Both the position numbers and the translations under genes were made by a program. From Escherichia phage vB_Eco_ZCEC15, in the sequence record PQ871103.1: a DNA stretch of 64,000 nucleotides; one strand, given 5' to 3'. Position 1 is the stretch's first letter; each line of letters starts with the position of its first letter. The notes below the pieces were generated by a model that saw only the letters and a program-made list of their open reading frames with translations, searched no databases and had not been told where the DNA came from. Shown here one piece after another: positions 8,560-20,968 of the stretch.

Positions 8560-9141
8560 CTAACCGAGCTTTTTAGTTAATTCATTCCAATGTTTTCTAC
8601 ACAAAGAAACATAAATTTCATCACCAATACAGATTTGATTACCTTCTTTAACTGGTGTTCCATCTTCCATTAATCGAGCTGTCATAATAGCTTTTTTACC
8701 ACAATGACAAACTGCCTTTAGTTCAATAAGTTTATCTGCAATCGCCAAAAGTTCTTTAGAACCTTCAAATAATTTTCCAGCGAAATCAGTCCTTAGTCCA
8801 TAAGCCATAACAGGAACATTATATGTATCAACAATTCGGCTTAATTGATGCACCTGTTCAGTTTTTAAAAACTGGGCTTCATCTACAAATACACAATGAA
8901 TATCTTTTTGTGCTTCAGCCCATTTATAGAACTCAAAAATATCCATATCATCCGTAATAATATTCGCTTCCTGCTTAATTCCAATGCGAGAAACGACTTC
9001 ACAGACAGAATCACGAGTATCAATAGCAGGCTTAAGAACTAATACACCCATTCCGCGTTCTTTATAATTATGTGCAGCAGTCAAAAGAGAAGCAGATTTT
9101 CCAGCATTCATTGCTGCGTAAGTAAAAATTAAACTCGCCAT
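8560..9141 (-). CDS. tk: thymidine kinase
   Basis: 193 aa; P-loop AAMNAGKS and C-terminal Cys cluster CHCG...C..C typical of thymidine kinase; T4 synteny. Confidence 0.95.
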   Translation of the reverse strand: MASLIFTYAAMNAGKSASLLTAAHNYKERGMGVLVLKPAIDTRDSVCEVVSRIGIKQEANIITDDMDIFEFYKWAEAQKDIHCVFVDEAQFLKTEQVHQLSRIVDTYNVPVMAYGLRTDFAGKLFEGSKELLAIADKLIELKAVCHCGKKAIMTARLMEDGTPVKEGNQICIGDEIYVSLCRKHWNELTKKLG

Positions 9142-9150
9142 ATCACCTTC

Positions 9151-9336
9151 TTAAAGCGTATTCACATAAGCTATTAATTCATTTTCTTTCTTATCAAACC
9201 GATCAGCAAATTCTTCCTGCTGTTCGGGAGATAGCGGGCCATATTCATCATAAAAGGTGTTTGCTTCTGTATGCTCATCTAGAAGTTCATGGATAAGCTC
9301 AAACAATTTATCTTTTTGTTCTTTACTCAGACTCAT
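9151..9336 (-). CDS. hypothetical acidic small protein (61 aa)
   Basis: ORF downstream-adjacent to tk on the map (tk.1 position). Confidence 0.5.
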   Translation of the reverse strand: MSLSKEQKDKLFELIHELLDEHTEANTFYDEYGPLSPEQQEEFADRFDKKENELIAYVNTL

Positions 9337-9506
9337 ATATTAATTTCCAGGAGTTTTAAAATAATTCGCTTTTGCTTAAATATTTCCATAGTTAAATGAC
9401 CAGTATCTTTTTGACCGATTCCAATGGCAAAACCTTTATTGACAGCGAGTTCAATTAAATTATCAAGCTCACATAACACTTCATATTGTAACTCAAAACT
9501 ATTCAT
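9333..9506 (-). CDS. possible small protein (57 aa)
   Basis: Unlisted ORF; ATGA overlaps with both neighbours suggest translational coupling. Confidence 0.4.
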   Translation of the reverse strand: MNSFELQYEVLCELDNLIELAVNKGFAIGIGQKDTGHLTMEIFKQKRIILKLLEINI

Positions 9507-9730
9507 TTTGGTTTACCTTCTTTAACGAAATCGGGATAAGGATAAAATCCTGAATAAAATCCTTCACCTTTATGATTGATGCATCCTTTATTAGAACAAT
9601 AGCACCAATAATCGAAATCACAAGCCATTTCATCATTACATAAAGCAAAAACAACTGGCCATTCACACTTTTCGCAGTGGGCATTTTTAAGAATACTTGT
9701 TTGGCTCATAACCATGTAACCTTTAAACAA
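9503..9730 (-). CDS. Cys-rich small protein (75 aa)
   Basis: ORF with multiple Cys/His (CEKCEW...CDFDYWCYCSNKGCINH), possible zinc-binding. Confidence 0.45.
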   Translation of the reverse strand: MFKGYMVMSQTSILKNAHCEKCEWPVVFALCNDEMACDFDYWCYCSNKGCINHKGEGFYSGFYPYPDFVKEGKPK

Positions 9731-9918
9731 TATTCTTCTACGTGTTGTTTACGACCTTTCTTATCAATAAAGGTATATTCAACGAATGTTCCAATATAGT
9801 CTTTATCTACACCATGTGGACTATTAATTGGGCATTTAGTACGGCAAATGCGTTCCCATTGACGAATAATTTCCACTTTGTTTTTAGGATCAAACGGATG
9901 CGGGTAATGTACTTTCAT
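9706..9918 (-). CDS. hypothetical small protein (70 aa)
   Basis: ORF in tk-vs interval. Confidence 0.45.
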   Translation of the reverse strand: MKVHYPHPFDPKNKVEIIRQWERICRTKCPINSPHGVDKDYIGTFVEYTFIDKKGRKQHVEEYCLKVTWL

Positions 9919-10369
9919 AATCCACCACTATTAAATCAATATCAGGAGTAAACATGTCGATTAATTTAGAAACCTTATCCCAATCGCCGCCAGCAATACC
10001 GCAACCTATACGTGGAATGTAAATTACTGGTTTAAACAAAAGGGTTTCTGCCTGTAGATTTAATTCTATCATGCAGTTTACTAAAGCACCATAATCAAGA
10101 TTAGGACCCGGTTCGTATTGTGTATACAGGTTATAGCATATACCAAATCCCGTAGGACTATGTTTAAAAACAATAGACATATCGCCTAATTTATCACGAG
10201 AACCGTACTCGGTAGTGGTTTTATCTATTTCTAAAATTTTGGGATAGGCTCTTGCTAATTGACCCGCTACGCCAGAGCCCATTGTGTGGAAGCAATTGCA
10301 CCCGTGCGCAATAATATTACCTTGAAGAAATAGGGCGACAATATCGCCCTTGATATATTTTACAATCAT
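9890..10369 (-). CDS. macro domain protein, TARG1/OARD1-like (159 aa)
   Basis: Motifs YIKGDI, HGCNCFHTMGSGVAGQ and IPRIGCGIAGG align with TARG1-type macrodomain blocks as recalled. Confidence 0.75.
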   Translation of the reverse strand: MIVKYIKGDIVALFLQGNIIAHGCNCFHTMGSGVAGQLARAYPKILEIDKTTTEYGSRDKLGDMSIVFKHSPTGFGICYNLYTQYEPGPNLDYGALVNCMIELNLQAETLLFKPVIYIPRIGCGIAGGDWDKVSKLIDMFTPDIDLIVVDYESTLPASV

Positions 10370-10713
10370 CTAGTACTCAATCCTCGATTATAAGAATCTA
10401 CTAAACGGTCAACCATTGAATGACAAGCGGCTTTATCTTTCTCCTCCGCAACTGAACATTCTAAGGTATTCCACTTTTTAGCATATCGTTTTAACAATGT
10501 ATCATTTTTGTATCTGCTTGATTTATCTCTTTCTCCGTCTTTATATGCATATATTAATTTCTGCGCAAATTCAGCTTGGCATGCTTTATTTTTCCCACAA
10601 TAATCCGCGGCAGTACGGTTTACATACTCTCTAATTTCAGTATATGATGTATCTGCTAACGCAGAAGCAGAAAATGAAATTAATCCTATACATAAAACCA
10701 AAATTTTAGTCAT
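10366..10713 (-). CDS. secreted small protein (115 aa)
   Basis: Signal-peptide-like N-terminus MTKILVLCIGLISFSASALA; length equals T4 vs but identity not confirmed. Confidence 0.55.
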   Translation of the reverse strand: MTKILVLCIGLISFSASALADTSYTEIREYVNRTAADYCGKNKACQAEFAQKLIYAYKDGERDKSSRYKNDTLLKRYAKKWNTLECSVAEEKDKAACHSMVDRLVDSYNRGLSTR

Positions 10714-11251
10714 TTACTATTTCCAAAAGTTTATTATTTTTAAGGTAATTAGCCTTTTCTAGGACTTCAGAAGCATATTTAGAACCTGCTTTAACATTCC
10801 ATCCCGAATTATAAGAGGATATCGCCTTTCTTATATCGCCCTTATGTATATTTAACCAATAAGAAAGTTCAATGTACGCCCAGGAAGCTGAATTGGACCG
10901 TTTATTCAACATTCTTTTTATTTCAGCATCGGTCATATTATAACCAAGTTCCTTAACTCTTGCTCGCATAGTAGGCAAATAATTTTGGAACATTCCATAG
11001 GCATGATGCTTTGGTTTAGATTTTAAATTAACTCCGGCAGAGCTTTCTTGCCATAAAATAGCAGCCATTATATGACCCAATCCGCTCTTGTGGATATTTT
11101 TGTGTGTTTTATATTTTCCATCCTTAGAAAATTGTTCCCCGAATTGATACGCGTAACGCATGTTATCGAGTTGGACATTACTGAAAGTATGCTCGGAGCT
11201 ATGCGCCATCATTGAAATGGCCAATAGACCAGCGAGTAGTGCTTTTCTCAT
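10706..11251 (-). CDS. secreted lytic-transglycosylase-like protein (181 aa)
   Basis: Signal peptide MRKALLAGLLAISMMAHS; SLT-like catalytic block ILWQESSAG...YGMFQ. Confidence 0.65.
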   Translation of the reverse strand: MRKALLAGLLAISMMAHSSEHTFSNVQLDNMRYAYQFGEQFSKDGKYKTHKNIHKSGLGHIMAAILWQESSAGVNLKSKPKHHAYGMFQNYLPTMRARVKELGYNMTDAEIKRMLNKRSNSASWAYIELSYWLNIHKGDIRKAISSYNSGWNVKAGSKYASEVLEKANYLKNNKLLEIVND

Positions 11252-19612: not shown

Positions 19613-19689
<77 letters not shown>

Positions 19690-19692
19690 TAA

Positions 19693-20358
19693 TTAAAATT
19701 TCATTTTTCTACCTTTAAACCATCCTTCTGGAATTGGGTCAGTTTTCTTAATACGTTTAGAAACTTTTTCATCTAATGAATGAATCCACATCATACCAAA
19801 TTGGGAATTCTTTTCACCTTGTTGGTGTTTATTTTTGGCGTGAGATTCTTTCATTTTATTAATAGTTTCAGGAGTATGATGCTTATTTAAAAATCTGCTA
19901 TTATTTAAAAATTTTTCCCTGTATTCAGGAGTTGACCACAAACGTTTAAATACATTTGAACCATGTTTACGATATTTTTCTTGAAGTAAAATATCATTTT
20001 TAAAACGTGACTTAAACGATTTAGCTCCTTTTAAACTAGCGTCTTTCTTCTGATTTAGCATCTCAGGAATATTTATATGGTCCCATCCACCTTCACCACC
20101 AAGTTTTAAATTATACACATCTGGTCTATTTAAAAACTCTTCTGTGACAATATTTTTCTCGGCTTCAAGCATAGATTCTTTATCATCAAAATACTCTAAT
20201 ATTTCTTTAGAGAAATTTTCTATACCATACTTGTCTTGGGCTCTTTTTAATAATTTACCAGAACCCATATATCCATCATCTAAATTTTCGGTAGAATGCA
20301 CACCAATATAAATTTTATTATTAATTTTATTTGTTATTTTATAAGTGTAATGGAACAT
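19693..20358 (-). CDS. segB: GIY-YIG homing endonuclease
   Basis: 221 aa; N-terminal YTYKITNKINNKIYIGVHS...GYMGSG GIY-YIG motif; located inside the tRNA cluster as T4 segB. Confidence 0.85.
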   Translation of the reverse strand: MFHYTYKITNKINNKIYIGVHSTENLDDGYMGSGKLLKRAQDKYGIENFSKEILEYFDDKESMLEAEKNIVTEEFLNRPDVYNLKLGGEGGWDHINIPEMLNQKKDASLKGAKSFKSRFKNDILLQEKYRKHGSNVFKRLWSTPEYREKFLNNSRFLNKHHTPETINKMKESHAKNKHQQGEKNSQFGMMWIHSLDEKVSKRIKKTDPIPEGWFKGRKMKF

Positions 20359-20399
20359 AAATATCTCCTATTTCTAAGAGTATTTATGTTCCCAAAATA

Positions 20400-20471
20400 T
20401 GGCCCTGGGTGGAATTGAACCACCATCTGGCGATTATGAGTCGCTTGCTTGAACCTTCCAGCTACAGGGCC
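20400..20471 (-). tRNA. tRNA-Ile (anticodon CAU, lysidine-type)
   Basis: Acceptor GGCCCTG/CAGGGCC, anticodon loop CTCATAA, T-arm GGTGGTTCAATTCCACC; no encoded CCA. Confidence 0.8.
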
Positions 20472-20472
20472 T

Positions 20473-20548
20473 TGGTGCTGATTGACGGAATCGAACCGCC
20501 GACGTCCTCATTACAAGTGAGGTGCTCTACCTACTGAGCTAAATCAGC
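20473..20548 (-). tRNA. tRNA-Thr (anticodon UGU)
   Basis: GCTGATTTAGCTCAGTAGGTAGAGC..., anticodon loop CTTGTAA, T-loop GGTTCGATTCC, encoded CCA. Confidence 0.85.
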
Positions 20549-20555
20549 GAAATTA

Positions 20556-20642
20556 CGGAGGCGATAGGATTTGAACCTATGAGTCGCCGGAGCGACTGCC
20601 GGTTTTCAAGACCGGTGCATTAAACCACTCTGCCACGCCTCC
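20556..20642 (-). tRNA. tRNA-Ser (anticodon UGA)
   Basis: Class II tRNA with long variable arm; acceptor GGAGGCG/CGCCTCC, anticodon loop CTTGAAA, T-loop GGTTCAAATCC. Confidence 0.85.
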
Positions 20643-20644
20643 AG

Positions 20645-20718
20645 TCTCCATACAAGGATTTGAACCTTGGACCTCCTGATCCCAAATCAGGCGCTCTACC
20701 AAACTGAGCTACACGGAG
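20645..20718 (-). tRNA. tRNA-Pro (anticodon UGG)
   Basis: TAGCTCAGTTTGGTAGAGC D-arm, anticodon loop TTTGGGA, T-loop GGTTCAAATCC. Confidence 0.85.
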
Positions 20719-20728
20719 TAAATTAAAT

Positions 20729-20802
<74 letters not shown>

Positions 20803-20807
20803 AAATT

Positions 20808-20894
20808 TGGTGCGAGAAGTGGGACTCGAACCCACAAGGAAATCATTCCGCAGCATTTTAAGTGCTGTGCCTTTACCAATTTGACCATTCTCGC
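20808..20894 (-). tRNA. tRNA-Leu (anticodon UAA)
   Basis: Class II tRNA; acceptor GCGAGAA, anticodon loop CTTAAAA, long variable arm, T-loop GGTTCGAGTCC, encoded CCA. Confidence 0.85.
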
Positions 20895-20895
20895 G

Positions 20896-20968
20896 CTGGG
20901 AATAAAGGACTCGAACCTTTGCATCCTGGAATCAAAATCCAGTGCCTTACCAACTTGGCTAATTCCCA
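20896..20968 (-). tRNA. tRNA-Gln (anticodon UUG)
   Basis: Acceptor TGGGAAT/ATTCCCA, anticodon loop TTTTGAT, T-loop GGTTCGAGTCC; 1-nt spacer to tRNA-Leu. Confidence 0.85.

Follow-up and report, generated by a model that had tools for sequence, protein, structure and literature searches.

The window (the whole stretch of DNA analysed, 64,000 nucleotides from Escherichia phage vB_Eco_ZCEC15, record PQ871103.1) belongs to Tequatrovirus, and over its segment 8500-11800 several Tequatrovirus genomes, among them those of Escherichia phage PBM-1 and of the Shigella phages vB_SsoM_113 and Sf21, match it at 99.0-99.4% identity. We identified an open reading frame of 159 amino acids with an ATG start at 9890..10369 (minus strand) in the ORF listing of the window; it is a tk.4 (adfM-type) coding sequence for a stand-alone macrodomain protein. 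The gene order around it (rI, rI.1, tk, small ORFs, tk.3, tk.4, vs, vs.1, regB, vs.3) is that of the classical T4 early region, the ORF is labelled tk.4 in records that use T4 gene names, and its T4 counterpart is ORF 60.5 of X04567, encoding 155 aa. It lies between vs and tk.3, in an order and with overlaps also seen in T4, T2, RB3, and SsoM_113, and is the positional orthologue of T4 tk.4. The gene is already known, as T4 tk.4/AdfM, and is annotated in hundreds of genomes. A sequence-only reading of this DNA had placed the ORF in the tk-vs interval and quoted four motifs from its translation; the ORF is real, the thymidine kinase gene (8560-9141) and vs (10366-10713) do flank it, and all four motifs are found: YIKGDI (residues 5-10), HGCNCFHTMGSGVAGQ (residues 22-37), IPRIGCGIAGG (residues 118-128), and DLIVVDY (residues 145-151).

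Several lines of evidence indicate that this ORF is more than a chance reading frame. The protein matches the Pfam Macro model PF01661 with 32 bits (gathering score 22, E=1.3e-7, model positions 2-117 of 118) and PHROG 335 at E=1.2e-71; five alleles of the window type give pairwise dN/dS values of 0.03-0.11 with dS up to 1.8, so that window-type tk.4 is under strong purifying selection; the AlphaFold2 model, computed from a 45-sequence alignment, has a mean pLDDT of 92.9 and a pTM of 0.88, with only residues 155-159 predicted to be disordered (pLDDT <50); and the same or nearly the same protein recurs at the matching locus in hundreds of Tequatrovirus genomes. Opposite-strand ORFs (for example, 9742-9951, plus strand) were judged spurious, since the minus strand carries a strong coding signal.

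At its 5′ end tk.4 overlaps vs: the tetranucleotide ATGA at 10366..10369 (minus strand), read from the sequence and also annotated in T4, T2, RB3, and SsoM_113, holds both the vs stop codon and the tk.4 start codon, which suggests that the two genes are translationally coupled in the early tk-vs-regB gene string. Upstream of the start, within the 3′ end of vs, there are a GAGGA Shine-Dalgarno-like site (10381-10385, minus strand) and a TATAAT hexamer (10387-10392, minus strand), and in the T4 record X04567 the corresponding positions carry the annotation of a potential RBS and −10 of ORF 60.5. A consensus scan upstream of tk.4 gave no sigma-70-type promoter with 16-18 nt spacing, and we therefore claim no promoter for tk.4; the candidate consisted of the TATAAT and GAGGA elements, matching the old “potential” annotations in T4. 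At the 3′ end, tk.4 and the start of tk.3 (9706-9918), which is read in another frame, share 29 nt according to the ORF coordinates (9890..9918, minus strand), whereas the T4 overlap is only 4 nt; the shared segment encodes a tail, STLPASV, that pairwise alignment shows to be absent from T4 Tk.4. We also noticed an 8-bp, G+C-rich hairpin on the minus strand at 10332-10350 (AGGGCGAU-AUU-GUCGCCCU), 17-36 nt downstream of the tk.4 start codon and spanning the codons for KGDIVAL, which the scan picked out on both strands as resembling a terminator. In 8 phages from three genera the stem is unchanged at synonymous positions while nearby synonymous sites vary; statistically, however, the local fold does not stand out (z=-1.4; 15 of 200 shuffles gave a fold as good), and the hairpin falls in a block conserved between tk.4 alleles, so it could be an mRNA element or merely part of a conserved block that mediates allele exchange.

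Pfam annotation of the neighbours gave DUF7202 for tk.3, DUF7438 for tk.2, a phage zinc-binding domain for one small ORF, and an SLT domain for vs.1, with no ADP-ribosyltransferase gene among them; nor does a darT toxin gene lie beside tk.4, where the neighbours are vs, vs.1, tk.3, the zinc-binding ORF, and tk.2. The macrodomain is therefore an orphan and not half of a phage-borne toxin-antitoxin pair. The vs.1 gene (10706-11251), annotated merely as hypothetical in most records, has a hydrophobic N-terminus resembling a signal peptide and a weak match to an SLT lytic transglycosylase domain (E=4.8e-5).

The sequence-only reading had called the protein TARG1-like and had proposed structure prediction and comparison with TARG1 and DarG. 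The class assignment is correct: the window Tk.4 has the three-layer alpha/beta/alpha macro fold, and the top Foldseek matches in the PDB are TARG1, Poa1p, BT1257, the Thermus and Mycobacterium DarG macrodomains, and SCO6735 (E=2.6e-10 to 4.4e-8, TM 0.7-0.8). Searching PDB sequences with the family profile recovered the same proteins (BT1257 at 1.4e-19, TARG1 at 3e-17, SCO6735 at 1e-15, Poa1p at 7e-15, and DarG at 4e-11); the nearest structural neighbours are thus TARG1, DarG, Poa1p, and SCO6735/BT1257, and not the MacroD or viral types, and the Pfam score stands above the gathering score. Two Gly-rich ADP-ribose-binding loops are present, MGSGVAG (residues 30-36) and GCGIAGG (residues 122-128); in the 45-sequence alignment G33, G122, and G124 are invariant, and G31, G127, and G128 nearly so. 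DarG is the sole PADLOC match, and the best NCBIfam match is antitoxin_DarG (NF048014), at 27.7 bits against a cutoff of 250 and over model positions 2-142 of 338, that is, the macro half only; we rejected membership in DarG, since the match covers that half alone, falls far under the equivalog cutoff, and comes without a darT neighbour. The label “phosphatase” in databases stems from similarity to Poa1p and is no evidence of function. We also considered an origin from a bacterial DarTG operon: the one bacterial homologue examined, from Pelagimonas (40% identity), stands alone on the chromosome with no DarT-like gene beside it, a single case that does not settle the origin.

To compare active-site residues, we aligned the window and T4 Tk.4 proteins by MAFFT with TARG1, BT1257, SCO6735, and the Thermus and Mycobacterium DarG macrodomains (from PDB alignments) and with phiKZ gp104 (from its genome record), and scored invariance on an alignment of 45 homologues reaching down to about 40% identity. 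The MAFFT equivalences agree with the profile-to-TARG1 alignment and with hhalign of the window Tk.4 against SCO6735 (98.7% probability, E=3.9e-16). The first Gly-rich ADP-ribose-binding loop, H22-Q37, is encoded at 10259..10306 (minus strand), as located from the 45-sequence alignment, MAFFT, and hhalign. Within it, N25 (codon 10295-10297, minus strand) aligns with DarG Asn22, phiKZ AdfM Asn23, and SCO6735 Asn27, active-site residues named in PMC13309987, and the AHGCNC of the window protein resembles AHVCND of SCO6735 (an AHxCN motif). The segment N80-L-Y-T-Q84 (10118..10132, minus strand) has N80, Y82, and Q84 invariant in the 45 homologues, as are H22 and N25. Its last residue, Gln84 (codon 10118-10120, minus strand), stands at the position of TARG1 K84, DarG K80, and phiKZ AdfM K78 and matches SCO6735 Gln85. 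The second Gly-rich loop, which binds the diphosphate (P119-W130; 9980..10015, minus strand), was located by phmmer against 5e3b, 2afc, and 4j5q and by MAFFT; it reads PRIGCGIAGGDW and matches SCO6735 PRIGCGLAGGTW and BT1257 PRIGCGLAGGKW. The TARG1 loop is PRIGCGLDRLQW, and at the position of its Asp125 the window protein has Ala126; SCO6735 also has an alanine there (GCGLAGG).

The sequence-only reading had held that losing the Gly-rich loop and the Lys/Asp equivalents on alignment would speak against it. Both TARG1 residues are indeed gone (Gln84, Ala126), although the Gly-rich loops are kept and SCO6735 has the same arrangement. SCO6735 lacks the catalytic residues of TARG1 and DarG, yet it is efficient at clearing DNA of the thymidine-linked ADP-ribose made by DarT and protects cells from that toxin, and its Q85A mutation abolishes activity (PMC9411070). 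The loss therefore need not be fatal, because a protein with this same arrangement is a working DNA ADP-ribosyl glycohydrolase. Judged by alignment, the T-even AdfM family has SCO6735-type (Gln) residues, not residues of the DarG/TARG1 type (Lys), and these predict which point mutants should inactivate it.

SCO6735 (Streptomyces coelicolor, PDB 5e3b) and Bacteroides BT1257 (2afc/2fg1) are about 26-27% identical to the window Tk.4, which shares with SCO6735 the Gln at the TARG1 Lys84 position, the absence of Asp125, and the AHxCN motif. They differ in that both are cellular proteins, SCO6735 being under a DNA-damage promoter, and in that the mobile loop of SCO6735 after the Gln, with Lys89/Lys94, is ~6 residues shorter in the window protein and has no lysines there (YEPGPNL versus HGMKTGSKGAPV). 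Human TARG1/OARD1 (PDB 4j5r) is the best Foldseek match (E=2.6e-10, TM 0.82 on the target) and has PRIGCG in common, but the identity is about 20-22% and its Lys84/Asp125 dyad is replaced by Gln84/Ala126. Relative to DarG of DarTG2 (PDB 5m3i, 5m31, 7omu), the window protein keeps the Asn (N25 = Asn22) and has Gln in place of Lys80; the C-terminal DarT-binding domain of DarG is absent, and there is no adjacent darT. With yeast Poa1p (PDB 6lfq-6lfu) the alignment is weak in the C-terminal half; H22 and T29 align with Poa1p His23 and Ser30, but H22 is also common to SCO6735 and TARG1.

The nearest relative in T4 shows a mosaic pattern. T4 Tk.4 (AdfM) shares the locus (vs/tk.4/tk.3) and the start overlap on vs, aligns over its full length, belongs to the same PHROG, gives the same DarG-model matches, and has H22, N25, NLYTQ, and PRIG in common with the window Tk.4; however, the two are only 56.6% identical over 155 residues, the second loop is GAGIGKG in T4 and GCGIAGG in the window, and the window protein has a 4-residue C-terminal extension reaching into tk.3. 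Compared with T4, the flanking Tk, Vs, Vs.1, and RegB proteins are 99% identical and Tk.3 91%. The first ~45 residues of Tk.4 are nearly identical; beyond them lies an island of divergence (approximately 9844..10324) where nucleotide identity in windows of 100 nt drops to 44-76%, compared with 95-100% on either side, identity recovering within the first ~45 codons of the gene. The reverse holds for other phages: the window Tk.4 shares 96% identity with its counterpart in phage 212 and 91% with the one in Gaprivervirus CJ20, whereas the flanking proteins of these two phages are only 45-70% identical to those of the window. Dhakavirus Tk.4 alleles are 71-77% identical to the window Tk.4. This swapped pattern of identity between gene and flanks indicates that tk.4 moved as a cassette between Tevenvirinae genera, and the window carries a replaced, Gaprivervirus-like tk.4 allele; the 29-nt overlap with tk.3 is probably where recombination joined the 3′ end of the cassette. 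In the phage collection, where both alleles are common, the window allele type occurs in 312 records (>=90% identity) and the T4 allele type in 224 records at >=90% and a further 159 at 80-90%. A homologue is detectable in 2,789 phage records, consistent with the report that about 41% of myoviruses carry macrodomains (PMC9503650). Such behaviour, as a cassette that T4-like genera exchange, is what one would expect of an anti-defence locus.

We also observed a second island of divergence from T4 at 9160-9743 of the window (27-51% nucleotide identity in 100-nt windows, flanks 95-100%). It replaces the tk.1/tk.2 arrangement of T4 with a tk.2-like DUF7438 ORF (54% identical to T4 Tk.2) and two small ORFs, RB32ORF110c and RB32ORF111c, the second having a Cys-rich “phage zinc binding domain” (PF23895). 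In addition, there are eight tRNA genes on the minus strand at 19613-20968, a T4-type set in which Arg is separated by a ~710-nt gap from Met-CAT, Thr, Ser, Pro, Gly, Leu, and Gln; in the stretch read from vB_SsoM_113, otherwise 99% identical, there are additionally a tRNA-Tyr, a tRNA-Asn, and a truncated SegB-like gene, so the tRNA region varies among close relatives too.

The function of tk.4 was assigned only in late 2025. Transposon libraries of T4 grown on a host expressing DarTG2 returned tk.4 as the single significant gene, and T4 became sensitive to DarTG2 once tk.4 had been cleanly deleted; the protein was found to be structurally similar to M. tuberculosis DarG and the gene was named adfM (anti-DarT factor Macrodomain), removal of ADP-ribose by T4 Tk.4 being the authors’ inference and not a demonstrated activity (bioRxiv 10.1101/2025.11.20.689424, a November 2025 preprint). 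The phenotype fits an earlier prediction: resistance to DarTG2 persists in T2 and T4 without adfN, and in T4 without both AdfA and the NADAR protein AdfN, and a further anti-DarTG2 factor was predicted from those mutants (PMC11825919). Our literature search on T4 AdfM found nothing beyond that preprint and PMC13309987. The leading idea of the sequence-only reading, that the protein reverses DNA ADP-ribosylation by DarT, is supported through the orthologue, since the window ORF is orthologous to T4 tk.4 and T4 needs that gene on a DarTG2 host; from the letters alone, that reading had correctly picked out a counter-defence gene.

We consider it likely, from orthology and active-site comparison, that the window ORF is an allele of T4 tk.4/AdfM encoding an early macrodomain glycohydrolase, most likely one that strips the ADP-ribose added by DarT2 to thymidine in single-stranded DNA; that the 57%-identical window allele has the same substrate as T4 Tk.4, and that removal is enzymatic, we infer. 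Under this model tk.4 would be expressed early within the tk-regB gene string, possibly coupled in translation to vs, and the two Gly-rich loops of Tk.4 would bind ADP-ribose on DarT2-modified single-stranded phage DNA carrying thymidine-linked ADP-ribose. Gln84 and Asn25 would position the distal ribose and a water molecule so that the ribose-thymine bond is cleaved, as proposed for SCO6735; template competence would be restored and replication could continue, with Tk.4 acting as an orphan, antitoxin-like eraser against DarTG2. Catalysis is probably Gln/water-mediated, as has been proposed for SCO6735, because Gln84 stands for the Lys and Ala126 for the Asp while Asn25 and His22 are kept.

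The alternatives are each less well supported than erasure of DarT2 marks. One of them, which we regard as improbable, makes Tk.4 chiefly a non-catalytic antagonist of DarT2: an inhibitor or decoy that either binds the toxin or sequesters what the toxin produces. Catalytically dead SCO6735 Q85A, DarG K80A, and TARG1 K84A still inhibit DarT in vitro, SCO6735 most strongly (PMC9411070), AdfA and AdfB work by binding the toxin (PMC11825919), and the canonical catalytic Lys is absent from the window Tk.4. However, homologues as distant as about 40% identity keep H22, N25, Q84, and both Gly-rich loops with little or no change, as in an active site under selection, and the 159-aa protein, which covers positions 2-142 of the 338 of the DarG model, lacks the domain with which DarG binds DarT. 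Moreover, the alleles cross phage genera, which is easier for an eraser that does not depend on the toxin than for a toxin-specific binder.

Similarly, there is little chance that Tk.4 hydrolyses a small ADP-ribose derivative, whether as a Poa1p-like ADP-ribose-1′′-phosphate phosphatase, as an O-acetyl-ADP-ribose deacetylase, or as a degrader or sponge of ADP-ribose-derived immune signals (Thoeris). Such names in databases are homology transfers and not tests, and the T4 orthologue has a specific DarTG2 phenotype. The substrate of Poa1p comes from tRNA splicing and has no evident source in T-even infection; RNA repair in T4 (Pnkp + Rnl1) makes no 2′-phosphate, hence no Appr-1′′-p, which counts against a Poa1p-like role, and we know of no Thoeris phenotype reported for tk.4, which counts against a role on immune signals.

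The phage marks made by Alt, ModA, and ModB are on arginine, a linkage that macrodomains are, to our knowledge, not known to cleave, and this counts against their reversal by Tk.4. Reversal of protein or RNA ADP-ribosylation in general, whether of those Alt/ModA/ModB marks or of marks that host toxins place on RNA, we hold to be very improbable. In its favour, ADP-ribosylated proteins are also substrates of TARG1 and SCO6735 (PMC9411070), three ADP-ribosyltransferases are encoded by T-even phages (cited in PMC9503650), and RNA-ADP-ribosylating defences exist (mentioned in PMC11825919); against it, no ADP-ribosyltransferase gene adjoins tk.4 and the HIDEN-SEQ phenotype reported for tk.4 is on DarTG2.

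Two deeply diverged types of tk.4 allele, 57% identical, thus circulate in Tequatrovirus. It is possible, though rather unlikely, that the T4-type and window-type alleles differ in function, being suited to different DarT2 variants or specialised for different linkages of ADP-ribose (to another base, to RNA, or to protein); if so, tk.4 would mark a hotspot of the arms race, with a macrodomain mechanism of the Gln type that needs no lysine and has yet to be described in any virus. In phage therapy, the range of DarTG2-carrying strains open to a T4-like phage may depend in part on its tk.4 allele.

The name AdfM has also been given, independently, to a protein of a chimallivirus, phiKZ gp104, which was shown biochemically to remove ADPr from DarT2-modified DNA (Cell Rep 2026, PMC13309987). 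Like the T-even protein, it is a stand-alone phage macrodomain that counters DarTG2; it differs in matching DarG at E=9e-25 and in keeping Lys78, together with Asn23, and BLASTP aligns only 23 residues of it with the window Tk.4 (E=0.001). The phiKZ gene lies at L010:12518-13006. T4 Tk.4 (Gln-type, SCO6735/BT1257-like) and phiKZ gp104 (Lys-type, DarG-like) are separate lineages, essentially unrelated in sequence and with no relationship detectable apart from the macro fold, and represent independent recruitments of different macrodomain lineages. What is new here is the Gln-type active site, the cassette exchange, and the existence of two “AdfM” proteins of differing lineage. As a further observation among phages, a Tk.4-like macrodomain (30% identity over 147 residues) occurs in a Microbacterium phage under a feature annotated as “ADP-ribosyltransferase”, which in this actinophage could reflect either a macro-ART fusion or a writer gene and an eraser gene side by side.
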